Origin: an uncultured Bacteriovoracaceae bacterium
GTDB lineage: Bacteria > Bdellovibrionota > Bacteriovoracia > Bacteriovoracales > Bacteriovoracaceae
Direction: 5' to 3'
Assembly (NCBI GenBank): GCA_964012805.1
Contig: CAXGUD010000030.1
Location: 1 to 46,086 of the forward strand
DNA: 46,086 nucleotides
Shown: one piece after another, positions 1-35,047 of the stretch
Layout: each line of letters starts with the position of its first letter
How positions within the stretch are numbered: position 1 is the first letter of the stretch
Notes under the pieces: model-generated
Told to the model about the DNA's origin: nothing
Database searches by the model: none
Seen by the model: only the letters and a program-made list of their open reading frames with translations
Translations under genes and position numbers: made by a program

Positions 1-1
1 T

Positions 2-742
2 CAACTCCGTTCCTTTATAGAAAAAACAAACAATACTAGATCTAATTTTATTAAAGAGAATAGGAGGCTTATAGAAGTCGCGAATTCAGTACATAATAAC
101 AGTGGAAATGGAGGAAATATAAATGAATTAATAAAAGATATAAAAACTGCTTTTAATTCATTTAACCAAAAGTTTGTATTAAAGGAATTAAGTTCCATTT
201 TTAATCAGTTCATTTCTCCAATTGAAGAACTAGCAAGGCAGCAGGATAAAATGGTAGAAATCAATATCACAGAAAGCGATATATACCTAGATCCCGAAAG
301 TTATAAAGAATTATTTTCTAGTTTTATTCATATATTTAGAAACTCTATAGATCATGGGATAGAATCTATTGAGGAAAGGATTGCTAAAAATAAGCAAAAG
401 ACAGGAATTTTAAATATAAAAATTAAAAAAATTAATTCGAGTTTCTTTGAAATTATTATTTCCGACGACGGAAGAGGTATAGACCCTAAAATGATAAAAG
501 AAAAAATTTCTAAGATAGAGGGTATAAAAGAAACCAATTTAGAAAAATTAACGGATCGAGAAATTTTGGACTTCATTTTCCATAAAGGATTTACGACTAA
601 GGAAGATATAAATACAATTTCTGGGCGAGGAGTAGGGATGAATTCAGTTAAAAATGAAGTCGAGGCGATAGGTGGTAAAATAATAATTAAATCGATATTA
701 GGTGATGGGGTTGACTTTATTATTAAACTACCCTTTTTATAA
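2..742 (+). CDS. CheA-like histidine kinase, C-terminal part (5'-partial), ending after the HATPase domain
   Basis: Frame is open from base 2 (QLRSFIEK...IEELARQQDKMVE) into the listed 251..742 ORF. CheA-type P4 motifs HIFRNSIDHGIE, DDGRG, GFTTK, SGRGVGM. Stops at KLPFL with no P5 domain. Confidence 0.85.
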   Translation, partial: QLRSFIEKTNNTRSNFIKENRRLIEVANSVHNNSGNGGNINELIKDIKTAFNSFNQKFVLKELSSIFNQFISPIEELARQQDKMVEINITESDIYLDPESYKELFSSFIHIFRNSIDHGIESIEERIAKNKQKTGILNIKIKKINSSFFEIIISDDGRGIDPKMIKEKISKIEGIKETNLEKLTDREILDFIFHKGFTTKEDINTISGRGVGMNSVKNEVEAIGGKIIIKSILGDGVDFIIKLPFL

Positions 743-921
743 TTTAAATGAGTTGTAAAGAAATAATACATTATATTTATTTTATTTAATTAAAACTTTC
801 ATCGATTTTTTGATTATCTCCCATGGCAAATAAAATTTAAGGTTTCTAATCTTTAAAGACGATAATTTATCAATACTTTTAATTAGAATAAGCTTTAAAT
901 TTTTTAATTAATGGGATTTTA

Positions 922-1290
922 ATGAAAAAAATTATCGTATTGTTAAATCTATTTTTTTTCATAAATTTAATAGGCTGCTCTACTATTACACCACTAAAGG
1001 GTAGTCAGTATCATAAAAAAAAATTTTCTAGCTTTGAAGAATGTTTAAGCAAAACGACTGGGAGGTATAATTTTTCGGAATATACTCTGAATCTATTCGC
1101 CGGGATTGGAGGTCTTGTTCTAATGTATAAATCGGGTAGGACCGATTCCTTTTGGGGGTTCCTAGGCTCTTCTATGTTAAGTGGGGCAGGTTTTAATAGA
1201 TTGGACGATGTTAAAAGGGCAGCAGAATCATGTCAGGATTATGATGAATGGAAAAAAAATCAAAAGCCCAAACTTATTAAATTAATTTAA
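922..1290 (+). CDS. Hypothetical lipoprotein with glycine-rich hydrophobic segments
   Basis: MKK + hydrophobic stretch + LIGC lipobox. Two Gly-rich hydrophobic segments flanked by Cys. Confidence 0.6.
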   Translation: MKKIIVLLNLFFFINLIGCSTITPLKGSQYHKKKFSSFEECLSKTTGRYNFSEYTLNLFAGIGGLVLMYKSGRTDSFWGFLGSSMLSGAGFNRLDDVKRAAESCQDYDEWKKNQKPKLIKLI

Positions 1291-1479
1291 AACGATCGTA
1301 GATAAATTTATTGATGCTAAAATTTTTTTATTTAAATAAAAAATATATAACGAACTATTATTAATTAATTTTTAAAAATATAGTTCAATTTCTTATATTT
1401 TTTTTTAAATAAACGATGAATAATTTAGAAAAAGTGTAATGATTTTTCTAAAACTCAATTTTTTTATTAGGAGAAAGAA

Positions 1480-1737
1480 ATGAAAACACTTAAAATTCTG
1501 ATGGCTTTTTTAATAATTTCATTAACAATTTCAATAAATGTCGTGAGCGCAAAAGAAAAAAAATATCCAAAAAAAGTTTGTGATGGAATATACGGCTCAA
1601 TTGGTTTATTTGTTAAAATTGCTGACGGTATATGGAAAAAAAAGAAAAATGACAAAAAAGCGGTCTTATACTCCCAAGCAGCGGCTAATTATGCAACTAT
1701 TTATGAAACAGTATGCAGAAAAGGAAAATCTAATTAA
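1480..1737 (+). CDS. Small secreted hypothetical protein (2 Cys)
   Basis: AGGAG RBS; signal peptide ending VSA; mature part basic and helical-looking. Confidence 0.65.
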   Translation: MKTLKILMAFLIISLTISINVVSAKEKKYPKKVCDGIYGSIGLFVKIADGIWKKKKNDKKAVLYSQAAANYATIYETVCRKGKSN

Positions 1738-1940
1738 ATAAATATTTGATTAAAAATATAAACTTCATTTTATTATAATTAAGCTTACTTTTTAACAAAA
1801 ATAACTTTATTTTAATTTAGAGTTTGAGCTTTCGGAATAATATTCTATTAATGAGTGGTGTTGAGAGTAGAAAAAGGGTTTTTTCTTCTCCTAACCTTTT
1901 TCCTTTGTAAGTCAGCTCCACTTTTTTACTTTATTTACCC

Positions 1941-2543
1941 TTATAAAATTGGCCAACCCATTTTAATGGCCAGATAATGGGTCACTTTTGTATGAAAGTG
2001 AAAGTTGGCCATATCCAAAGGCCTCATACCTTTAAAACTTCCTTTCTTGATAGGCCCCAAGTCGGCCCCGGCTTCAACTAGAACCTTTACAACGTTGAAA
2101 TTCCCTAATAAAGATGCCTTCATAATAGGTGTAAGACCTTCATTATCTCCTAAGCTAAGGTCGGCACCTAAATTAAGAAGCTCTTTAACCAAAACATGAT
2201 CACCTTTTTCAATTGCTCCTAAAAGTGCAGTCATTCCTTCTTTTGTTTTGAAATTTATATCTGCACCTAAAAGTAGGCATTCTTTAACTCCTTTTAATCC
2301 GACTTTATAACCACACTGGCTTCCTAAAAGAGAGTCGTCAAGAGAATTACCTCTTGAGTTCGTTAAAGCTACGAGTTTTTTACCCCAATAACGGGCTTCA
2401 TCAATATTTGGTCTTTTTACAATTTGATCCATATTCCTCTCTGAACTCTTTTTAAGAGAAATACTGCAAGAACTTAAAACCAAACAAATTAAAGACAGAA
2501 AAGCAGTTTTTAAAAAGTTATTTTTTGATAAACAAAACTTCAT
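1941..2543 (-). CDS. Ankyrin-repeat lipoprotein
   Basis: LSSC lipobox; ankyrin repeats GMTALLGA..GADL, GLTPIMKA..GADL, GMRPLDMA. Confidence 0.85.
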   Translation of the reverse strand: MKFCLSKNNFLKTAFLSLICLVLSSCSISLKKSSERNMDQIVKRPNIDEARYWGKKLVALTNSRGNSLDDSLLGSQCGYKVGLKGVKECLLLGADINFKTKEGMTALLGAIEKGDHVLVKELLNLGADLSLGDNEGLTPIMKASLLGNFNVVKVLVEAGADLGPIKKGSFKGMRPLDMANFHFHTKVTHYLAIKMGWPIL

Positions 2544-24422: not shown

Positions 24423-26456
24423 GTGCTAAACTATTCACCAAAAGGAGACGATCCAAAAACAGAGGCTATGGAAACAAAAACAAATTTTATTTCCCTTAAT
24501 CATAAAAGATTTATAGTTCCTTTATTCGGAATTATTCTACTTCTTTTTTCTTCTTGTATGGATCAAGAGGCCTTACGCTCTAAGAGGTCCCTTCAAAAAA
24601 ACCAAAATGAATTTACTGAGAATGAGTCGGAGACTTTGAATGGCTCCAATCCTTATCAAAATGACCCTTTAGCGGGTCCCCTTGACGGTAATATTGAAAC
24701 TGGAAGTAATATTGCTGATGGCTTTATTTATGGAAGGGCCGATTTAAGACATTTTGTTGACCCTTTCGATGGAACCTATAAAACAAAAATAACTGTACCG
24801 AAGAATATGGCAGGGCTTCTTTATATCTCAGGAATTAATGTATCTGGTTTGTCAGAAAGGCTTATTAGAGTCAGGTTTAATTTTGGTCGTGAGTATGAAC
24901 CTATTGATGTTCCAGCAACTGTAGGAAGGGCACCTGGGATAACGCCACAGACAGATATTGAAGTTCTTATTTTAGATATGTCTTCTCAACCATTTAATCG
25001 CCTTCGCTTAATGTATGATCTTTTTGACTATACAAATTACGATGGAGATAGTGATGGTGTAGAAGTTATAAGTGATAATGTCGTACCCTCTAATGCTAAA
25101 AATACAAACCTTTATTGCAGAGGTCTCTTTTTAGAGCATGATCCTACGTTTGAAGATGTGTCTGGAGATACAGGTAAGTGTGATGCTTCTTCAGATACAT
25201 GCCTCTACGCTTATGCTAAAATTTCGGACTCCCATCTCTATGATGAGAATGGATTGTATACAACAACACCTACAGTAACTCAAATTGATCAAAGTGGTCA
25301 GGGGTATGGCTACGATGTCACTTCTGATAGCTTGAGGTGTCTACCAGATAGCAATAAAATAGCGGATCTTAAAAATGCCTTACCCTTTACCAATGATGGA
25401 AGTAATACGTCCCTTTCAATTGGGGGGACCATTGATTTAACGACAGGTAAAGAGATGATTTATAAAGGTCCATTTAGGACTTACAATGAAACAAATTGGG
25501 AAATTACTGGAGAAGCTATTTTTTCACCTATTATTAATCAAGGCGACAAACCAAAGGGAATTTTTCAAGACTACATAACGACAAAGTTACCTGCTAATGG
25601 TTTTAGGTCTTTCCTCTATCCAAGGTTTGGAAAAATGGAGCTTAGTAAAGATGTACAATACATAAAGTTAAATGGAAGCGATGTAAGTTCAGATAGAAAA
25701 GTGGAAACAATGATTGCAAGTGGTGAAACAGAATACATGGATGGTTGCAATTTAAGAGTTAGTAATCATGATTCTTATGCTAATGAAGGATTATCTTCTT
25801 GTAATATAACTGCAACAATAGAACTTATTTCAATTGATCCTCAAACTGGTGCGCAAACAAAAATCCTCAAAACGCCAAATAAATCTTTAAAGCTTCAAAT
25901 TATAAGACCTAGTTTAGTGGATTACGCTGGGCGAGAAGTACTCTATGAGGCTTTAAAAACTTGCCAAAATAGCAAAGATTGTAAAAGTGATGAGTGTTGC
26001 TTTAATCAAAGATGCTGGTCGAAAAGAATTGTGACTCAGTGTAAAGAAAATGTAAGTGATCAAGGCAATCTCCCTGTAGGGGAACAATGTGGATCGGACT
26101 TTCAATGTTCATCACTATGCTGTAGTGGATCTACAAAGGTATGTGCACCTCATGTTAATAACTTTACTGATAAGTATAAGGTTTTATGCTCTAAGAGTCC
26201 CGGCCAGGCTTGTGTCGCTCAAGAATGGTGTCAAAAGGTCGACTTAAGAAAATGCCTTGTCGTAAAAACAGGTATTAGTGTAACGGGTAAGCAGGAATGT
26301 GGTCTCCGCTGTTACAATGTTCCGACCTTTGCAGAATGTAGAGATGGAGTTTGCGTTCCTCCTCAACCCTATGCAATTCCAGCCTTTGACCCACTTGACC
26401 CAAATAGATGCAACCAGGCCCTTGATCCGCCAAAAAACTTAAATCAGTTAAAATAA
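24423..26456 (+). CDS. Large lipoprotein with Cys-rich C-terminus (start probably ATG 24468)
   Basis: LFSSC lipobox; 20 Cys in the last ~165 aa. Confidence 0.8.
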   Translation: MLNYSPKGDDPKTEAMETKTNFISLNHKRFIVPLFGIILLLFSSCMDQEALRSKRSLQKNQNEFTENESETLNGSNPYQNDPLAGPLDGNIETGSNIADGFIYGRADLRHFVDPFDGTYKTKITVPKNMAGLLYISGINVSGLSERLIRVRFNFGREYEPIDVPATVGRAPGITPQTDIEVLILDMSSQPFNRLRLMYDLFDYTNYDGDSDGVEVISDNVVPSNAKNTNLYCRGLFLEHDPTFEDVSGDTGKCDASSDTCLYAYAKISDSHLYDENGLYTTTPTVTQIDQSGQGYGYDVTSDSLRCLPDSNKIADLKNALPFTNDGSNTSLSIGGTIDLTTGKEMIYKGPFRTYNETNWEITGEAIFSPIINQGDKPKGIFQDYITTKLPANGFRSFLYPRFGKMELSKDVQYIKLNGSDVSSDRKVETMIASGETEYMDGCNLRVSNHDSYANEGLSSCNITATIELISIDPQTGAQTKILKTPNKSLKLQIIRPSLVDYAGREVLYEALKTCQNSKDCKSDECCFNQRCWSKRIVTQCKENVSDQGNLPVGEQCGSDFQCSSLCCSGSTKVCAPHVNNFTDKYKVLCSKSPGQACVAQEWCQKVDLRKCLVVKTGISVTGKQECGLRCYNVPTFAECRDGVCVPPQPYAIPAFDPLDPNRCNQALDPPKNLNQLK

Positions 26457-26471
26457 TTTTCCATGCAAATT

Positions 26472-28091
26472 CTAGGTGATAGGAAGAGCGACTTTAACAA
26501 TCGTTTCACCAGGCTTTGATTGGAAAGAGATATTACCATTGTGGTTTGAAACAATATTATGTGCGATTGATGAACCAAGGCCTATATCAAAAGGCGATTC
26601 AAAGGATGAAAGAGGCTTAAACAACTTATCCTTAAGTTCTTCTTTAATTCCAGGACCGTTATCTCTAATAATAAAAATAACTTCTTCTTGTTTTAATTCA
26701 TAGGAAAAATCAATTTGTTGTCTAACTGATTTGTTATCTTTTTTCTCTTGAAAAGAGTTAATGGAATTTTGAATAATATTTAAAAAGACCCTTTTTAAAC
26801 TTTTCGCTTCTCCGTATAAAAACCCTGTTTTACTTATATCAGGAAAAATAAAGGAGAGGTTAGGATGAGATAATATCAAATAAGATACAGACTCTTGGAG
26901 GTCTTCAATCATTGAGGAGATATGAATTTTTTCTTTTTTTGGGGTCGGTGATTTAATGGTTTCTTGTATATGCCAAAGAAAAGATTCAAAGTCCTGGCAG
27001 GTACTATAAATATAGGAGAGGTTATTGAGGACTTCTTTTTGGTTAGCTATTGATTGTTGGGCCTTCGTCGTTGCATTCATGAGGTTATTGAGAGTTAGTT
27101 TTAGGTCATGAGTAATGGCCCCTATATTTTCACCTAGTTTTGAAAGTCTACTGCCAACCCTTATTTTATTTTCTAGGTAAAGCTCATTAAGAAGTGTTTT
27201 TGATAATTTTGAAATAAGTTCAAGAAAAAAGTATTCACTTGAACTTAAAATTTTATTTTCTGGTTCAAAAATAAAATATAACCTCTCCATTTGAAGAAAA
27301 ACTAGGTTTTGATCATTTTCCAATTTTAGAGGTGAATCATTGTCACTTAAGTCAACTAAATTCTCGAGCTTTTGGATTAATATTTTTTCTTTTTGAATGT
27401 TAAATTTATTGATAATTTTATATTCATTATTATCGTTTTTTTCACAAACAGCTAAGCTTTTTAATTTAAAATACCTTTTGAAAAGTAATATAATACTCTC
27501 TTTAAAATTTTCTATTGATTCTTTTGACCAGGTTTGATGATTACGTAAATTATGAATCATAGTCGCTTGATATTTGGAAATATCATCAGCCATTTTGATC
27601 ATTTGATTTTTAGAATTCCATTCTGATATTGACTTATTAGCAATTGAAACAACTTCTTCGCCCTTAAAGGGCTTTGTAATATAGCTTATATTGCTTCCAA
27701 TGATTTCATTGATTTCAAAAACAGTGAATTCGTTGTAGGCCGTAATAAAAATTACTTCAATTTTTGGATCGATGGACCTTATAATTTTTGTAGCTTCAAC
27801 TCCATTCATCTCAGGCATCTTAATATCTATAATAAGAAGAGCAAAAGAATCATCATTTTCTTTTAATTTTTTAACTTGTTTTATGGCTTCTTCACCTGAG
27901 TAGACACTAAAAGGAACCATGTTTGAAGTGACAGATTTTTCGTTATTTGAAATATCATCAAACAAACTTTTTGCTTTTTCACTAAGGGATTTTTTTATCT
28001 TTGACTGGCCTTCTAAAATAGTTTTCAAGGAGTCTGCGATATCTTTTTCATCATCAACGATGAGAATTTTATTATTTTCTTGTAATTCCAT
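26472..28091 (-). CDS. Hybrid response regulator/histidine kinase (REC-linker-HisKA-HATPase)
   Basis: Start moved to ATG at 28091 (MELQEN) to avoid overlap. ILIVDDE, IIDIKMP, ITKPF; H-box THDLK; DNGPGI. Confidence 0.9.
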   Translation of the reverse strand: MELQENNKILIVDDEKDIADSLKTILEGQSKIKKSLSEKAKSLFDDISNNEKSVTSNMVPFSVYSGEEAIKQVKKLKENDDSFALLIIDIKMPEMNGVEATKIIRSIDPKIEVIFITAYNEFTVFEINEIIGSNISYITKPFKGEEVVSIANKSISEWNSKNQMIKMADDISKYQATMIHNLRNHQTWSKESIENFKESIILLFKRYFKLKSLAVCEKNDNNEYKIINKFNIQKEKILIQKLENLVDLSDNDSPLKLENDQNLVFLQMERLYFIFEPENKILSSSEYFFLELISKLSKTLLNELYLENKIRVGSRLSKLGENIGAITHDLKLTLNNLMNATTKAQQSIANQKEVLNNLSYIYSTCQDFESFLWHIQETIKSPTPKKEKIHISSMIEDLQESVSYLILSHPNLSFIFPDISKTGFLYGEAKSLKRVFLNIIQNSINSFQEKKDNKSVRQQIDFSYELKQEEVIFIIRDNGPGIKEELKDKLFKPLSSFESPFDIGLGSSIAHNIVSNHNGNISFQSKPGETIVKVALPIT

Positions 28092-28101
28092 ATTAATTTC
28101 T

Positions 28102-29358
28102 CTACTTGCCTTTTTTAGGAAAGGAAATCTTAAAATTAGCACCTAGATTAAGACCAGGACTCGTTAATGAGATTTGACCATGAATCAAGTCGATTACTTC
28201 TTTTACATAAAATAGTCCGAGCCCTTCATGATTATTCTTAAAAGATATTCCTCTTGAAAAAAGAAGAGCTTCCTCTTCTTTTGAGAAGCCTACGCCATTA
28301 TCTTCAATATTAATAAAGAAAGAGGTTTTATCTGAAGTCCATCCACTACTAACTTTAATTAGACTTTTTTTATAAGACTCATCATTTTCTTTTCTTTTCT
28401 CAATCGAATCATAAGCATTACTTAAAATATTTAAAAAAACTTGAAAGAGGTCGGTCGAATATTTTTTTAAAGTAAATATTTCTTTGGAAAGAGCAAGTTC
28501 TATATCAATTTTTAACGTTTTTCTTTGATTCTCAGTTAAGTTTAGAGCATTTTGTAAAATGTCGTGAACATTTGATTTTTCCTCTAGGGAATGAATGGGG
28601 TCCTGTTTTATTCTGCTGCGGTACATTTGTATGATTTGTTCAGTTTGATCGATTTTCATTTTAAGAGAAGACAATCTCTGAGTCTTTTGTTTGTGTTCCT
28701 CTTTGAGTGAGGATTTGAAAGTATCCAAAAAAGAAATTATATCCTCACTTTTTTCTTTAAACGCTGCTTTAAGTTCTTTCTCTTTGCTTTTAAAAAGATC
28801 TAACAACTTTGAAACGTGGTTAAAAGACTCTAGGGTTTGGTTATCTTCAATGATCTTAATCCCTAGAGTCAAGTTTGTTATTGTATTTCCTATATTATGG
28901 ATGACAGATTCCATCAACTTGACTTGACCATTTTGAAAGGACTCCCTTTCAATAAGAATTTCCTTTTCTTTTAAAATTCTTGTAACTTCCGTTATATCTT
29001 GAAAGACCCACATGAAGTGATCATTCGATATTTTCCTAATCATGATCGAAAGTATGAGAGTTTTCTTTTCATCTTTTGGGTAGAAATCAACTCTTTTGTC
29101 CTTAATTATAAAGCCTTGTTCATCTCTAAAATTGTTGATATTTTTTTTAAGGTCATTTCCAAGAGCTCTTTTTCCCATATTGAGGAGGTTAAAAATATTA
29201 TGAATTTCAGATGAGTTAGAGATAGATAACAGGTAATTGCAAGCAATAGCATTGCAGAGGTTAATCTCTCCTTCAAAATTCGCTTCACATAGTCCTATAG
29301 GGCTAAGATAAAGAAATTGTAGTAATTCTTCAGTACTTTTTTCCATATACAAAAGCAT
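28102..29358 (-). CDS. Cytoplasmic PAS-domain sensor histidine kinase
   Basis: N-terminal PAS-like LLQFLYLSPIGL...FQDITE; H-box VIHNIGN; NILSNA, DNGVGF, GLGL; no TM segment. Confidence 0.9.
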   Translation of the reverse strand: MLLYMEKSTEELLQFLYLSPIGLCEANFEGEINLCNAIACNYLLSISNSSEIHNIFNLLNMGKRALGNDLKKNINNFRDEQGFIIKDKRVDFYPKDEKKTLILSIMIRKISNDHFMWVFQDITEVTRILKEKEILIERESFQNGQVKLMESVIHNIGNTITNLTLGIKIIEDNQTLESFNHVSKLLDLFKSKEKELKAAFKEKSEDIISFLDTFKSSLKEEHKQKTQRLSSLKMKIDQTEQIIQMYRSRIKQDPIHSLEEKSNVHDILQNALNLTENQRKTLKIDIELALSKEIFTLKKYSTDLFQVFLNILSNAYDSIEKRKENDESYKKSLIKVSSGWTSDKTSFFINIEDNGVGFSKEEEALLFSRGISFKNNHEGLGLFYVKEVIDLIHGQISLTSPGLNLGANFKISFPKKGK

Positions 29359-29410
29359 TCTAACACAGTTTATTATAAAGTTAGAAGTTCAATTTTTAAG
29401 GGAGGAAATC

Positions 29411-29770
29411 TTGGATTTTGAGAGTATTTCAATAGAGGATTTGGATTCAAAAACGGATGCAGAGTTAGATCAATTGAATTTCGGAATTGTAGGAAGTGAA
29501 AAAGAAAATCATATTTGTACTCGTTACAACAAATACGAAGCTGACCTTGCTGGCCTTTCCAAAGATTACGTGATTGGAAAGAATTTTTATGTTGATGTAG
29601 CCCCATGTACAAATAATTTCTTGGTCTATAACCGCTTTGAAACAGAAACGAATTTGGAAGTAGCACTTGATTATGTTTTTACTTATAAACTCTCACCGAC
29701 GAAAGTTAAGCTAAGAATGCTGAAGTCCGAGGATTCTTTGACAGAGTATCTTCTTGTCCTAAAGAAATAG
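29411..29770 (+). CDS. pyp: Photoactive yellow protein (PYP) homolog
   Basis: LDQLNFG, YNKYE (Y42/E46), VIGKNFYVDVAPCT (C69), DYVFTYKLSPTKVKLRMLK align with H. halophila PYP. GGGAGG RBS before the TTG start. Confidence 0.92.
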   Translation: MDFESISIEDLDSKTDAELDQLNFGIVGSEKENHICTRYNKYEADLAGLSKDYVIGKNFYVDVAPCTNNFLVYNRFETETNLEVALDYVFTYKLSPTKVKLRMLKSEDSLTEYLLVLKK

Positions 29771-29778
29771 GAGGTTGT

Positions 29779-30462
29779 GTGGACTGGAAATCACTTATTC
29801 ACGAGGCTTTAAAAGAAGGAAAAGGACCTTTAACCGTTACACGTTATGGAGAAATAATACCTTCTTCATCTTTGTGGGTTGAAGTGAGAAAGTGGGTTAA
29901 GATTTTTAGAGAATATGGCATGTCTCCTGGAGATAGAGTTTCCATACAAGTGTCTGATGTTCTTCCTTATTTGGGATCCTTTCTGGCTTCTCTTTGGGAT
30001 GGCTATCAGATTATGATTTTTGACCCTTTTAAGAGTATAAAGGTGAAAAAAAAGTTGTTTCCTGCTGACTTGAAAATAGTTGAAGACAAAATATATGAAA
30101 ATGAAGAAATGGGTTTTTCATTAGGACAGGACCCTTTTGAAGAGAGTGATGTTAGGCTAATCTTTCTGAGAGGTAAGGGATACACGGCTTATACTGATGA
30201 TGACTTAAGTAGTTTGATAAACTCTTTCAAAGTAAAAAAAAGATTTTTAAGAAATAATGTACTTTCTTTTTCTGATTGGTACAGAGAAACCGGAATTATT
30301 CAAGATGTTATACCATCACTTATGTGGTCAGATCTTCTCTTGCAAGGGAGTTTGAAATGGGATAACGAAAAAATTTTGGCAATGAAAAAAAAATATCATA
30401 TAAATGTAGTCAAAGGCTTAAAAAAGTCTATTAAAGAAAATAATCAATTAAAACTTTTTTAA
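29779..30462 (+). CDS. Truncated, degenerate AMP-binding (CoA-ligase-like) protein adjacent to PYP
   Basis: FREYGMSPGDRVSI and VLSFSDWYRETGII match ANL N-terminal-domain motifs. The P-loop position reads IFLRGKG. Only 227 aa. AGGAGG RBS overlaps the pyp stop. Confidence 0.65.
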   Translation: MDWKSLIHEALKEGKGPLTVTRYGEIIPSSSLWVEVRKWVKIFREYGMSPGDRVSIQVSDVLPYLGSFLASLWDGYQIMIFDPFKSIKVKKKLFPADLKIVEDKIYENEEMGFSLGQDPFEESDVRLIFLRGKGYTAYTDDDLSSLINSFKVKKRFLRNNVLSFSDWYRETGIIQDVIPSLMWSDLLLQGSLKWDNEKILAMKKKYHINVVKGLKKSIKENNQLKLF

Positions 30463-30480
30463 CGAAGCGACTACACATAG

Positions 30481-31287
30481 ATGAAAAATCATTCCTTTTT
30501 TTCAAAAAATCAAAGGAGAAAAATTCTTTATTGCTCTTTGGAAGGTGGTAAAGACCAAATTTTTGATTTTTATAAACAAGAATTTGAAAAAGAGTCCATA
30601 CATCTTATTCCTATTTCAAATTTAAGTGATGCTAAAAAGTATACCTCTGATGATGCCTCAGAAATTTTGGGTTTTATCCTTCATTTTAATTGGGGTGAAA
30701 AACAGTGTGGACAATTTATAGAACACTTAAAAGAAAATAAGCTTCTTTTTGAATCCTCTTTTATTTTTATGCTCTTTGACTCAAAGTCATCTAGTGAGAG
30801 GAAAAGTGCTTTTGTATGGGGGGCCAAAGAAGTCTTGGATCCGAACGATTCAAAAAGTATAGGCGTTTTAAAAGATCATTTTATTAGCTATCATGGTGAT
30901 TTTAAATCATCTTCTTTTTCAAATTTAAATATTGGTTTTTTAGATGATTCTGAAAACCTTGTAGAGTCTTTTCAAAACTTTCTTTCTCAAAGAGAAATTG
31001 ATAAGAACTGGTCTTTTTTTACGACCTTGGAAGATTGGAAAAAAAATAAAAAATCATTTGATTTAGTGATGATTGATTACCGTTTTGGTAAAAATTTGGG
31101 AACCCAGTTAATCGAAGAGATTAAGGAATCCAATCGAAAAGCATTAGTTTTTATTATAAGTAATTATATTTCACCTGAGATAGAAAAATTATGTAAAGAA
31201 AGTAAGGCAGATTTTATCTTTAGTAAACCAAGGGACTTTAACCTTATTTTGTCCAGAATCTTTGAAGCTTATGTGAAACTTGTTTAA
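30481..31287 (+). CDS. Tandem receiver protein (pseudo-REC + REC)
   Basis: C-terminal FLDDS, FDLVMID, FSKP; degenerate N-terminal REC (RKSAFVWGA). Confidence 0.8.
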   Translation: MKNHSFFSKNQRRKILYCSLEGGKDQIFDFYKQEFEKESIHLIPISNLSDAKKYTSDDASEILGFILHFNWGEKQCGQFIEHLKENKLLFESSFIFMLFDSKSSSERKSAFVWGAKEVLDPNDSKSIGVLKDHFISYHGDFKSSSFSNLNIGFLDDSENLVESFQNFLSQREIDKNWSFFTTLEDWKKNKKSFDLVMIDYRFGKNLGTQLIEEIKESNRKALVFIISNYISPEIEKLCKESKADFIFSKPRDFNLILSRIFEAYVKLV

Positions 31288-31945
31288 AGGGAGTCCTCAC
31301 TTGGAATCAAATGAAAAAAGTATTATTGAAAGTTTCATTCATGATTTCAAAGGCGAGCTTCGGGATTTAAAATTAAATCTCGAAAAAGATAATAATGTTG
31401 AAGGATCTATACTTTTTCAAATCGAAATGATGAATGAAATGCTTTTAGCAGTTGAAGAGTATTACTTCTTTTATCATATGGAACTTAAAAAAAAATCTGT
31501 AAATTTACCTTTGTTGGTTAAAAGTTGTTTTCAAAAGGTTAAAGAAAGAAATCAAAATAGAACGGTAGAGTTTAATATTATTTTAAATAACTTTAAAAAA
31601 AGTAATGAGTCTGATCTTATCGGAGATGATGACTCAATAAAAAAGGCCCTCTCTCTTTTAATTGAAAATGCATGGAAATTTACCAAAGATGTTCCAAATG
31701 CAACGATTACCTTTGGTGAAGAGGATATTAAAGGAGAACACTTCTTTTATCTTTATAACAATGGTCCTAACCTCCCTCATGAGGTAAATATTTTTGATCT
31801 TTTTTATGGTAAGCGCTCTGGACACGAAAGGGCCGGTTTGGGAATAGGTTTACCGTTGGCAAAACTTATTTTTGAAAAACATGGCGGTCGTTTATGGGCA
31901 AAAAATAATGATGAAGGCGGGGTTACATTTTATTTTAAGTTTTAA
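31280..31945 (+). CDS. Sensorless histidine kinase (bacteriophytochrome-type HATPase)
   Basis: H-box FIHDFK near the N-terminus; ENAWKFT, GLGIGL, HGGRLWA, GVTFYF. Confidence 0.82.
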   Translation: MFKGSPHLESNEKSIIESFIHDFKGELRDLKLNLEKDNNVEGSILFQIEMMNEMLLAVEEYYFFYHMELKKKSVNLPLLVKSCFQKVKERNQNRTVEFNIILNNFKKSNESDLIGDDDSIKKALSLLIENAWKFTKDVPNATITFGEEDIKGEHFFYLYNNGPNLPHEVNIFDLFYGKRSGHERAGLGIGLPLAKLIFEKHGGRLWAKNNDEGGVTFYFKF

Positions 31946-31949
31946 ACTT

Positions 31950-32759
31950 TTATTTTAAACCTCTCTTTTCTATAACTTGGAAGATTTTTAAAGAGAGTTC
32001 TGAAGGGGAAAGAGGTTTAGGAAAGAAGTCATCCGCACCTCTTTTTAAGGCCTCAAGGGCGATATCAGGGTTTTGAACTGAGCTCATTGCAAAAATGAGA
32101 GCGTCAGGCTTTCTTTTCCTAATTTCCTCCATCGTTTCTAGCCCTGAAATTTTACTCATGACAATATCAACAAGGTAGATGTCACTTTCAATAAAATCTC
32201 TAAGAACCTCCTCTCCAGATTTGAATATATTTACTTTTTTAAAACCAAGCGTATTAAGGGAAGTCTTTAAGGAATTAAGGACATTTACGGAGTCATCAAT
32301 AATTGTAACGGAGTAATTGATGTTTCTTTTATGATCATCCCATTCAATTAATTTCTTTTTTAAGAGTAAGTCTATTTGCTGATTAGTCTTTTCAATTTCT
32401 CTGGATGGTGAAAAATATTCTGAGATTCCCCATTCAAAGGCTTGCTTTTTTTCTAATATTGTTTCTTCACTTAAAAGAGCAAAAAGGTCAGGTCGATGGA
32501 GTGTCTCATAGGATTTTATGAGAGAAGCACACTCTTTTAAATCATTTTTGTCAGCATTAAAGTTTATAAGGCAGGCCAAAACTTTTTTCTGAGGTTTATG
32601 CAAAAAATTTCTCAGGTCTTCTACTTGATAAAAAGCGGCATAAATATAGCCCTTTTTTGAGAAAAAGACTTCCTGTTCTTTTATTGGTTCTAAATCTTTA
32701 CTAAAATAGATAAAGTAGGGGAATTTTGCATTTGACATTAAAAAATCTCCTATTATCAA
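31950..32759 (-). CDS. Tandem receiver protein (pseudo-REC + REC), paralog of 30481..31287
   Basis: C-terminal IIDDS, YLVDIVM, GADDFFPKP; N-terminal KKQAFEWGI. Confidence 0.82.
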   Translation of the reverse strand: MIIGDFLMSNAKFPYFIYFSKDLEPIKEQEVFFSKKGYIYAAFYQVEDLRNFLHKPQKKVLACLINFNADKNDLKECASLIKSYETLHRPDLFALLSEETILEKKQAFEWGISEYFSPSREIEKTNQQIDLLLKKKLIEWDDHKRNINYSVTIIDDSVNVLNSLKTSLNTLGFKKVNIFKSGEEVLRDFIESDIYLVDIVMSKISGLETMEEIRKRKPDALIFAMSSVQNPDIALEALKRGADDFFPKPLSPSELSLKIFQVIEKRGLK

Positions 32760-32789
32760 GAAATTTTAGATTAAAAAAAGATAAATTGC

Positions 32790-34580
32790 ATGAAAAATAT
32801 TGAACTAGATAAAATTTTAGATTTGATTAGAAAAGAAGCAGGTCTTGATTTATTAAAATATGGTAAACATTATCTAGAAACTAGAATTTCTCAATTTTTT
32901 GAAGAGAAAAAACTATCAAGCTTTTCAGAATTACAGACCTATTTTCAAGAAAATAAAAATTCAATGAAAGATTTTATTGAAGCTCTCTTAATTGTTTCAA
33001 CGACTTTTTTTAGGGATCCAAATTCTTTTTCTGTATTTAAAGAGAGAGTTCTTGATTATCTTAAGACTCATAGGGGGGGGGATGAACTCAGGGTTTGGGT
33101 CGCAGGCTGTTCAACTGGAGAAGAAGCTTATTCAGTTTCTATTATTTTAAAAGAGTCTCTAGAAGAACTAGGGATATCTTCAAAAGAAATAAAAATTTTT
33201 GCAACAGATTTAAATGAAAAAAGCCTCTCTATTGCTTCTACCGGGTATTTTCACAAAAAATTTAGTGAAAATATTTCTAAAGAGAGACAAAGAAGGTTTC
33301 TAAAGAGAGAAGGTGACCAATTTCAAGTCATTGATAGTATTAAAAAAGATATTAGTTTTGTGAGCCATGACCTTATAAACCACGCCCCTTTTTTTAATTT
33401 GGATATTATTGTTTGCCGAAATGTCATGATTTACTTCAATAAAAAACAACAAAATGAAACCGTGACTAATTTTTACGAAAGTTTAAAAGAAAATGGAATT
33501 TTATTTTGCGGTGAAAATGAATTAGGCGTCACTATAGATATTAAAAGGTGGAGGCAATTCCAATTTGGGGTTTCAATATTTGAAAAACTAGAGTTAGGGA
33601 AAAAAGATAAAGAAGATAAAGAAGAAGATATTTATAATAAAAGTGAAAAACTGTATTCGAGAAACATTACTGATCCATTTGATTTAAAAAGAAGGGATAG
33701 GCTTTCTTTGACAAATCGTTATATAGATTTGTTACTTCAAGGAACTCTAAAAAATGGAGTTTTTTTGGAGGAAAATTTCGATATTCTTTATGTTATTGGA
33801 GGCGTAGAAAAATATTTCTCCTTAAATTCTGGTTACTTTTCAAGAAATATCTTTGGTTTTCTCAATAATGAAATAAAAGATCACTGCCGTATTTTGTTAG
33901 AAGACTGTGCTGAAAAGGAAGGCACGAGTGTTTATGAACTTAAATCAGTTGGACTCATAATTAAAGCCTATTTTTTAAAAAGTTTAGACGATTTAAAGGG
34001 ATTTTACCTTCAGTTTGATTCTATATCCTCGGAGAATCAAAAAGAAGAGAATATATCAGATATTAATAAAGATGAATTGGATGTTTTAAAAAATTCATTA
34101 AAAAAGAAAGAGAAAGAAAATTTTTATTTAAAAGAGCAAAATGAAGAATTGGGTGACTTAGCAAGAAGCCTCTCTGATAATTTGGAAAAAGAAAAAGCCT
34201 ATTATAAAAGTTCAAACGCTTTTTATGAATCCTTGAGTACAGAAAATCAGCTTTTAAAAGAGCAATGTAAGGTACTTAATTCCATTGAGTCTAGTGGGAA
34301 AGAAGCTTTCTTATACCTAAATGAAGAAGGGATTCTTCAAGACTTCAATGAAAAGACCATAGATTATTTTCCTTTAAAGTCCTCAGATAAAGGCCTATCT
34401 TTGGACCGAGTTTCTTCCTGTTTTAAGTCTTTTTCTTCGAAAAACTTACTAAAGGAAGTAAAGCAAAATAAAGATTTTAAAGGGCTTAAATTAACCTCCA
34501 GTGAGGGGAGTGAGTTTCTTCTTCAAATTTTCTCCATTTCTCCTAATCTATACCTTTTCAAAATTACAGAACTCCCTTAA
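32790..34580 (+). CDS. cheR: CheR methyltransferase with C-terminal PAS/coiled-coil/PAS_10-like region (CheBR-type, no CheB)
   Basis: TTFFRD, RVWVAGCSTGEEAYS, IFATDL, HDL, CRNVMIYF; C-terminal AFLYLN...FPL..SDKG.L resembles PAS_10. Confidence 0.9.
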   Translation: MKNIELDKILDLIRKEAGLDLLKYGKHYLETRISQFFEEKKLSSFSELQTYFQENKNSMKDFIEALLIVSTTFFRDPNSFSVFKERVLDYLKTHRGGDELRVWVAGCSTGEEAYSVSIILKESLEELGISSKEIKIFATDLNEKSLSIASTGYFHKKFSENISKERQRRFLKREGDQFQVIDSIKKDISFVSHDLINHAPFFNLDIIVCRNVMIYFNKKQQNETVTNFYESLKENGILFCGENELGVTIDIKRWRQFQFGVSIFEKLELGKKDKEDKEEDIYNKSEKLYSRNITDPFDLKRRDRLSLTNRYIDLLLQGTLKNGVFLEENFDILYVIGGVEKYFSLNSGYFSRNIFGFLNNEIKDHCRILLEDCAEKEGTSVYELKSVGLIIKAYFLKSLDDLKGFYLQFDSISSENQKEENISDINKDELDVLKNSLKKKEKENFYLKEQNEELGDLARSLSDNLEKEKAYYKSSNAFYESLSTENQLLKEQCKVLNSIESSGKEAFLYLNEEGILQDFNEKTIDYFPLKSSDKGLSLDRVSSCFKSFSSKNLLKEVKQNKDFKGLKLTSSEGSEFLLQIFSISPNLYLFKITELP

Positions 34581-34606: not shown

Positions 34607-35047
34607 ATGGTGAAAATTCCAGAAAGCTTTAGAAAAGATTGTGTTTTGGACCATGTGGCCATAGCAGTAGATGATTTAGAGAAGGCCGTTAAAACCTATG
34701 AATCTCTTGGAATTCAATTCAAAGATGAAAGGGAGGTTGTCGAATCGCAAGGGGTTGTTACAGCTTTTGCTTCCATTGACGAAAATGCTCAATTGGAGCT
34801 TCTTGGTGTTCATGGCGAGGGGGGGCCTATCGAGAAGTTCTTAAGCAAAAAGGGACCTGGAATACACCACCTCAGTTTTAAAGTCCCCGATATTGAGGCA
34901 AAATGTAAGGAGCTAAAAGAAAAGGGTTTTAAGCTACTTTACGAAGAACCTCAAAGTGGGGCCCATTCCTGTCGGGTAAATTTTATACATCCGAAGTCGA
35001 CAGGAGGAGTTCTTATTGAAATTTCGCAGCCAGTAGGTGAGACCTAG
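34607..35047 (+). CDS. mce: Methylmalonyl-CoA epimerase
   Basis: LDHVAIAV, QGV, FLSKKGPGIHH, FIHPKSTGGVLIE. Confidence 0.93.
   Translation: MVKIPESFRKDCVLDHVAIAVDDLEKAVKTYESLGIQFKDEREVVESQGVVTAFASIDENAQLELLGVHGEGGPIEKFLSKKGPGIHHLSFKVPDIEAKCKELKEKGFKLLYEEPQSGAHSCRVNFIHPKSTGGVLIEISQPVGET

Follow-up and report, generated by a model that had tools for sequence, protein, structure and literature searches.

Which protein receives the signal of a stand-alone photoactive yellow protein (PYP)? This output is named as a gap in the available text of two papers (PMC12826048 and PMC13250908), and the question is raised here by a cluster of eight genes in a 46,086-nucleotide stretch of DNA (contig CAXGUD010000030.1, hereafter the window) from an uncultured Bacteriovoracaceae bacterium (assembly GCA_964012805.1, 100% complete, hereafter G000). 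The eight open reading frames (ORFs), g1 to g8, are located at 26472–34580 and bear out the order and orientation given in a preliminary description made from the sequence alone: a receiver (REC)-containing hybrid histidine kinase and a PAS histidine kinase are read leftward, the PYP, a pseudo-ligase, a REC-REC protein and a histidine kinase rightward, a second REC-REC protein leftward, and a CheR-PAS protein rightward. In the same order, domain searches returned REC with HATPase, HATPase, PYP (TIGR02373), no family, REC, HATPase, REC and CheR. Two genomes of the same genus, G001 (assembly 72% complete) and G002, were used for comparison. Our reading, to which we assign a probability of roughly one half, is that the PYP docks in a light-dependent manner on the N-terminal PAS domain of g2, that g2 passes its phosphate to the receiver of g1, and that g1 signals onward, perhaps to g5 or g7. 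The locus offers a specific candidate partner of 120 residues fused to an easily assayed kinase, and thereby turns the question of PYP signalling into a two-protein experiment.

The PYP and the PAS domain beside it

The gene g3 (29411–29770, plus strand, TTG start) encodes a stand-alone, 119-amino acid (aa) PYP of the clade-C type. The protein matched the solved Halorhodospira halophila PYP (phmmer E 6e-18), and its residues Y39, E43 and C66 correspond to Tyr42, Glu46 and Cys69. When g3 was compared with the nine p-coumarate pocket residues listed in the available text of PMC12826048 (I31, Y42, E46, F62, V66, A67, P68, C69 and F96), eight were identical, and the sole change, Ile31 to Val, gave the residue that prevails in the clade (47 of 79 rows). 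The earlier identification of g3 as a genuine PYP therefore stands. The marks of clade C are present, since Trp119 and Phe92 are lost and replaced by Leu at both positions, and the sequence VAPCTNN is common to g3 and the Enterovirga PYP, which is assigned to clade C in the Data Set of Xing et al. The position of Met100 is occupied by Leu in all three genomes of the genus and by Met in 72 of the 79 rows. Replacement of Met100 by Leu slows dark recovery; slow recovery in g3, as predicted from this residue, would suit the integration of light dose more than phototaxis. As a whole, these residues suggest that g3 is likely a blue-light sensor of clade-C type.

Divergently oriented from g3 is g2 (28102–29346, minus strand, 414 aa), a histidine kinase composed of a PYP-associated PAS domain, a coiled coil, an H-box and a HATPase domain. 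The PAS-fold domain (28987–29346, minus strand; motif LLQFLY..P.G) is the candidate docking site. A scan of GTDB identified 459 loci with a clade-C-type PYP motif, and the locus counts given in this report rest on the best 80 of these 459. A profile search detected the PAS domain within ~400 bp of the PYP in 79 of the 80 loci; the single locus without a match lies at a contig end, with 117 bp of sequence downstream of the PYP. Used as a lone query, the first ~120 residues of g2 found a homologue beside the PYP in 75 of the 80. The domain was located downstream of the PYP in 75 loci, upstream in 2 and divergently in 2, so that the pairing persists in the altered orientation of the present cluster. 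Partner proteins from 62 of the 79 loci were scanned, with architectures taken from Pfam domains: the PAS domain was followed by GGDEF in 38, by a g2-type kinase in 18 and by another hybrid kinase in 1, and the remainder showed only a second PAS (3) or nothing recognised (2). Since the outputs beside the PYP vary, it is the PAS domain, not the output, that is the near-constant companion of the PYP, a feature that the preliminary description did not bring out.

The domain was N-terminal in nearly all of 135 library matches. An AlphaFold model of the g2 domain (pLDDT 89) had a PAS fold, and its top Foldseek matches were PAS/LOV domains (TM about 0.55–0.68, identity 13–20%); Pfam PAS matched weakly in a few of the 79 members of the domain and did not match that of g2. 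In the host family, the domain was present in 3 of 237 genomes, exactly those with a clade-C-type PYP, and was not found in the 6 of these 237 genomes that carry a different PYP type. Five PYP-bearing genomes contained copies of the domain at the PYP locus only. The search was also reversed, using genomes drawn regardless of PYP, 300 from Myxococcota and 350 from Verrucomicrobiota (small samples, in which kin are not independent). These 650 genomes yielded three new matches, and the two strong ones had a PYP adjacent or 2.4 kb away. A complex prediction for the g3 PYP and the g2 PAS domain scored 0.17 against a mark of 0.32 and counts neither way. This association across genomes suggests that the N-terminal PAS domain of g2 is likely the docking site for the PYP. 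The possibility that the two make no contact, the PAS domain binding a small ligand of its own or dimerising and the PYP and g2 being parallel inputs inherited as a cassette, appears to us improbable. It agrees with the observation that the most conserved stretch of the domain is its N-terminal helix, a part through which PAS proteins often dimerise, and shared transfer by itself yields co-occurrence; however, the domain stays with the PYP while the outputs are exchanged (GGDEF, kinases, PAS-only), and it is rarely found without a PYP.

At two loci, L026:6228–10044 (Salinibius halophilus) and L074:6250–10367, the PAS domain heads a ~240-aa protein without a recognised output, upstream of the PYP, and a gene resembling a chemoreceptor and an aromatic lyase come after the PYP; such an adaptor might provide a route to phototaxis. 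At the Acetobacteraceae loci L017, L025, L032, L057, L059, L060, L073, L075 and L076, the partner is ~370–385 aa long and contains one more PAS, without any enzymatic output being recognised; in L075 and L076, another copy of the PYP-associated PAS domain lies further downstream. The PYP match forms the end of a much longer frame at L039:5627–7327 and L064:874–2031, which are possible C-terminal PYP fusions followed by the partner domain.

The two kinases and the rest of the cluster

In g2, the catalytic residues H150 (H-box), N306 and D349 (HATPase) are conserved. Next to it, g1 (26472–28091, minus strand, 539 aa) encodes a hybrid kinase with the order REC, DUF3369/GAF-like linker, HisKA and HATPase; D89, T117 and K140 of the receiver and H328 of HisKA are conserved, and the receiver is complete (acidic pair, phospho-Asp, Thr/Ser and Lys). 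The H, N, G1 and G2 boxes of class I histidine kinases are present in g1, g2 and g6, those of g6 being read from the sequence. Together with the intact receivers of g1, g5 and g7, they agree with the earlier view of cytoplasmic kinases and receivers with intact catalytic residues. Homologue alignments place the probable starts of g1, g2 and g7 at ATG codons at 28091, 29346 and 32738, respectively, the last also having a ribosome-binding site.

All of the g2-type kinases (18/18) were followed by a g1 homologue or fused to one, the fusion being a natural 915-aa g2-type/g1-type kinase of a spirochaete (L069:7369–10116). Outside the genus, a core of PYP, g2 and g1 was found at 16 loci among the best 80 of 459, in Spirochaetota, Verrucomicrobiota, Myxococcota, Bacteroidota and Planctomycetota. 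Loci L011, L012, L013 and L054 show an opposite-strand ligase followed by PYP, kinase and hybrid kinase, and L012 also has an aromatic lyase; we infer that flipping pyp alone would turn this layout into that of g1–g4. Relative to G001, the ratio of nonsynonymous to synonymous divergence (dN/dS) was 0.09–0.27 across five comparable genes, with 0.14 and 0.20 for the two kinases.

The second half of the cluster differs in kind. The paralogues g5 (30481–31287, plus strand) and g7 (31950–32738, minus strand) lack an output domain. Their C-terminal halves are complete receivers (acidic pair, phospho-Asp, which is D199 in g5, Thr/Ser and Lys), but their N-terminal halves lack the phospho-Asp and the acidic pair and are pseudo-receivers by sequence, so that the former REC-REC label holds for one half of each protein. 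Between them, g6 (31280–31945, plus strand, 221 aa) encodes a sensor-less histidine kinase core, in which the sequence of the G1 box is NNGP (DNGP in G002). The last gene, g8 (32790–34580, plus strand), encodes CheR (CheR and CheR_N domains, E 8e-49), PAS, a coiled coil and PAS_10. It is similar to CheB/CheR fusion (CheBR-PAS-kinase) proteins, aligning over 452 residues at 27% identity with a CheB-CheR-...-HATPase protein of G002, but lacks the CheB and kinase parts; longer relatives of its C-terminal part were not found, which is weak evidence. The preliminary description treated all eight genes as one self-contained unit. This was not supported: only PYP-g2-g1, joined at some loci by a ligase, was found again outside the genus, and g5–g8 never were. 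A division of the block into the PYP-g2-g1 core and g5–g8 fits better; the latter are genus-specific additions linked to the PYP by adjacency in one genus.

None of the eight proteins contains a transmembrane segment (highest 19-residue hydropathy 1.23, compared with 2.47 in the neighbouring rhomboid), and no domain match to helix-turn-helix, GGDEF, EAL or aromatic lyase was found in any of them. Hydropathy and domain searches thus agree with the earlier statement that the block lacks a transmembrane sensor, a DNA-binding output, GGDEF/EAL and tyrosine ammonia-lyase (TAL). That statement had been coupled to an output such as motility or predation. In G000, there are nine flagellin-family matches, FliM/N genes and, on contig C58, two CheW-domain genes. 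These flagellar genes, the retention of the whole set in G002 and the output-less receivers g5 and g7 would fit a single pathway of all eight genes in which chemotaxis-type machinery directs phototaxis or predation and the g8 CheR methylates receptors. We give such a pathway a slim chance: the genes fall into four runs of alternating orientation, g8 is of the CheB/CheR-fusion type, and Pfam searches, tblastn with three methyl-accepting chemotaxis proteins (MCPs) and a motif scan found no MCP in G000. None was found in G001, and two were found in G002. The lack of a detectable chemoreceptor in a 100%-complete genome counts against classical phototaxis and against the motility output proposed earlier, and a receiver acting straight on the flagellar motor is possible. 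The predatory output proposed alongside motility likewise gained no support. In the near-complete genomes G011 and G022, likewise, no chemoreceptor signalling domain was found.

In the relay that we favour, p-coumarate would be joined to Cys66 of g3, where the residues are in place, by enzymes encoded elsewhere in the genome. Light would then shift the binding of the PYP to the g2 PAS domain and alter autophosphorylation at H150, as the co-occurrence of the two suggests. The phosphate of g2 may pass to D89 of the g1 receiver and gate the g1 kinase, a step to which the 18/18 linkage and the one fusion point. In the weakest step, g1 would phosphorylate a downstream receiver, with g5 and g7 as the candidates lying closest; as both lack an output domain, they would act by protein contact. 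Meanwhile, g4 may be kept as a non-ligase accessory for binding or chromophore handling, in line with its motif loss and the selection acting on it.

Pseudo-ligase and chromophore supply

The gene g4 (29779–30462, plus strand) aligns with the first ~230 residues of AMP-binding enzymes encoded next to pyp in loci of Verrucomicrobiota and Planctomycetota (phmmer E 3e-8 to 8e-5 against five pyp-linked enzymes). In an Atlas search with g4, 26 of 30 matches were AMP-binding, and when the L011 ligase was searched in G000, the best match was g4. No Pfam model matched g4, PF00501 included, and alignment with full-length homologues revealed neither the P-loop, GYGxTE and TGD motifs nor the C-terminal domain. 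Compared with the pyp-linked p-coumarate-CoA ligases (pCLs) accompanied by TAL in Halorhodospira halophila, L012 and L034, g4 is thus homologous to the front part but only half as long, and it is not followed by a lyase. Its length is 226–227 residues in the three genomes of the genus and in close homologues, and its dN/dS relative to G001, 0.088, is below that of both kinases. Motif loss together with low dN/dS indicates that g4 is being kept as a pseudoenzyme and is not decaying. Judged from these motifs, g4 cannot be a ligase: it is the front half of a CoA ligase of the pyp-linked kind and catalytically dead, as the name pseudo-ligase had implied; its retention as a binding or chromophore-handling accessory is our guess. 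An AlphaFold model built from 6 sequences reached a pLDDT of 41, and a profile comparison with the L034 ligase gave no match. Among 250 genomes of the phylum, g4 was not found outside G000.

The preliminary description took the missing TAL as a sign that the chromophore is scavenged. However, according to the available text of Dohmen et al. (2025, PMC12826048), 5% of pyp operons include TAL and 32% include pCL, and lack of linkage to pyp is usual both there and in the available text of PMC9664959. In the present set, 24 of 39 long clade-C loci had no TAL or pCL-type enzyme within 7 kb, and 15 had an AMP-binding match, the g4 of G002 being counted among them. Because these enzymes are seldom near pyp, their absence from the block says little. 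In addition, G000 encodes HutH, a second, non-HutH aromatic ammonia-lyase (G000:C12:88082–89665; L088:1390–2973) and 21 AMP-binding matches, and the scavenging proposal was not upheld.

These data also bear on chemical sensing, in which the PYP would signal through g2 with its apo or holo state, set by external hydroxycinnamate, as the input, and g4 would be a non-catalytic binder. Such sensing would explain a linked ligase that is half-length yet conserved, the lack of a linked lyase and the 24 loci with neither enzyme, and environmental uptake of the chromophore is allowed by Dohmen et al. in the available text (PMC12826048). We nevertheless consider it rather unlikely, as g3 retains its photochemical residues (Tyr42, Glu46), TAL and pCL are normally unlinked, and G000 has a candidate lyase and 21 AMP-binding matches of its own. 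A wider reading can be put forward only tentatively: that the PAS domain is a dedicated clade-C PYP receptor and a swappable docking module, that the triplet of PYP, kinase and hybrid kinase is an undescribed light-driven phosphorelay of six phyla, and, jointly with these, that in this genus a dead CoA-ligase half became a chromophore-handling or regulatory subunit and the behaviour of a marine predator is tuned to light.

Several points weigh against the light-dependent relay from PYP to g2 and g1. Although g3 matched TIGR02373 with E 2e-23, its 82.5 bits are below the cut-off of 143; since the model covers ~20% of PYP homologues (PMC9664959, available text), this score bars g3 from the equivalog, not from the wider PYP family. 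The conserved Asp34/Gly37 turn is replaced in the PYP of this genus, and no characterised clade C PYP was found in the available text of the literature searched. Many of the 80 loci are close kin, the second-round PAS profile was built from the same loci, and the third match of the reversed search (33 bits, G666) lies in a genome without a PYP. The support for docking is genomic context, and co-transferred cassettes co-occur without contact. At the other 78 loci, no counterparts of g5–g8 were found beyond generic receiver and kinase similarity. No TAL or pCL proper was identified in G000, and the C12 lyase falls short of all NCBIfam cut-offs; its specificity site reads Tyr-Leu, compared with Phe-Leu in its top PDB matches and His-Leu in Rhodobacter TAL. 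It sits between two small genes with an apparent resemblance to acyl-ACP dehydratases. Two of three PYP-less genera examined also have a second lyase, and a C12-type lyase was not found in the incomplete G001 and G002; the enzyme is therefore not a demonstrated chromophore supplier.

Known systems, insertion site and age

PYPs beside kinases or cyclases, and PYPs in Bdellovibrionota, are already in print. Xing, Gumerov and Zhulin (2022, PMC9664959) described clade C PYPs beside GGDEF genes, and Enterovirga is among the loci found here. As far as their available text shows, those loci resemble ours in PYP type, in the stand-alone PYP with a signalling neighbour and in the frequent lack of TAL and pCL, and differ in that the output here is a two-kinase relay and Met100 is Leu. 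The same text names the GGDEF neighbours; a shared N-terminal PAS domain or the triplet was not found in it, and the one Bdellovibrionota row found is a clade B protein of Pseudobacteriovorax. Bacteriovorax and Bdellovibrio PYPs appear in the lists of PMC12826048, where 17 operons link pyp to histidine kinases and are read as PYP feeding a two-component system. This HisKA/HATPase linkage is like that described here, except that g1 and g2 are divergent from pyp and would be missed by an operon screen. No pyp case with CheR or a half-length ligase was found in the searched text of that paper. The only experimentally supported PYP-kinase link found in the literature searched (PMC12826048, available text) is Ppr, the PYP-phytochrome-histidine kinase fusion of Rhodospirillum centenum (PDB 1mzu); it couples PYP to a histidine kinase, as here, but in one polypeptide with phytochrome, whereas g3 is separate and would act in trans. 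Light-dependent binding between a stand-alone PYP and the protein encoded by the adjacent gene has a precedent in Rc-PYP/PBP of Rhodobacter capsulatus (bioRxiv 10.1101/2021.06.01.446672, available text). Unlike the kinase g2, PBP has 142 residues and no stated enzymatic output, and the likeness is one of description.

The preliminary description knew of no account of this arrangement in Bdellovibrionota, without vouching for its novelty. PYPs of the phylum are in print, but no description of the triplet, the shared PAS domain or the pseudo-ligase was found in the literature searched, which covered few subscription papers and not the earlier PYP family surveys. Work on the locus would open clade C to functional study for the first time, might supply a modular optogenetic pair, and would offer a conserved pseudo-ligase to explain as well as a starting point for the study of light sensing by marine Bacteriovoracaceae. 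The predatory lifestyle of the marine host is inferred from family membership.

The block lies between a Cys-rich gene (24423–26456, plus strand), which marks the insertion site, and mce (34607–35047, plus strand), encoding methylmalonyl-CoA epimerase. The Cys-rich protein (~650 aa), formerly labelled a lipoprotein, was present in 22 of 24 family genomes and in 0 of 16 outside the family, and matched no Pfam or NCBIfam model. In 20 other genera, no cluster gene was found at this site; within 500 bp, the Cys-rich gene was followed by mce in 16, as the direct junction suggested earlier would have it; three genera had the rhomboid gene there, and one had neither. The complete set of eight, with order and flanks unchanged, is present in G002; G001 has the first five before a contig end, its g6–g8 not being found elsewhere in the assembly, so that synteny in relatives was confirmed. 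A metagenome contig with PYP-g4-g5-g6 was among the matches listed, and the frames are intact in it and in the three genomes. Every gene junction is bridged jointly by contigs from two other marine metagenome runs. Clade-C-type PYPs were confined to this genus in the family (3 of 237 genomes). In a quick PYP tree (79 rows), the three genus sequences formed one long branch whose possible sisters had at most 85% support, and the donor was not placed.

The preliminary description also called the block AT-rich. Its GC content is indeed 30.6%, compared with flanking values of 36.5% and 37.3% and a genome-wide 35.3%, and 3.9% of 1836 same-size windows had an equal or lower value. As a sign of transfer this fails, because GC at fourfold-degenerate sites is 0.282 in the block and 0.283 on average in the genome, and the AT-richness thus comes from protein composition. 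Both within the block and outside it, synonymous divergence from G002 approaches saturation, indicating that the block is old; the two results rule out recent horizontal transfer. The block is an old, genus-specific insertion, vertically inherited within the genus. Its proteins are 33–61% identical to those of G002, as against 68–91% for the flanking genes compared, and this, with the half-length ligase, is what would be expected of a vestigial block in which chromophore synthesis is lost, leaving an apo-PYP and genes that are drifting or put to unrelated use. The intact frames, the dN/dS of 0.09 for both the PYP and g4, and the age of the block make this the slimmest of the alternatives.

Promoter and terminator predictions were at chance (36 versus 31.5 ± 4.9, and 5 versus 4.5). 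One metatranscriptome gave four short contigs, one of them inside pyp, which is not proof of transcription. A sequence match in G010 contained four stops and was discarded. The different PYP type found in six other family genomes (L094–L099, in G205, G122, G204, G192, G066 and G067) lies beside, or is fused to, a coiled-coil-like protein, and in G067 an aromatic ammonia-lyase is located two genes downstream of it. At the start of the window (1–2000), the GC content is 26–27%, below that of the cluster.

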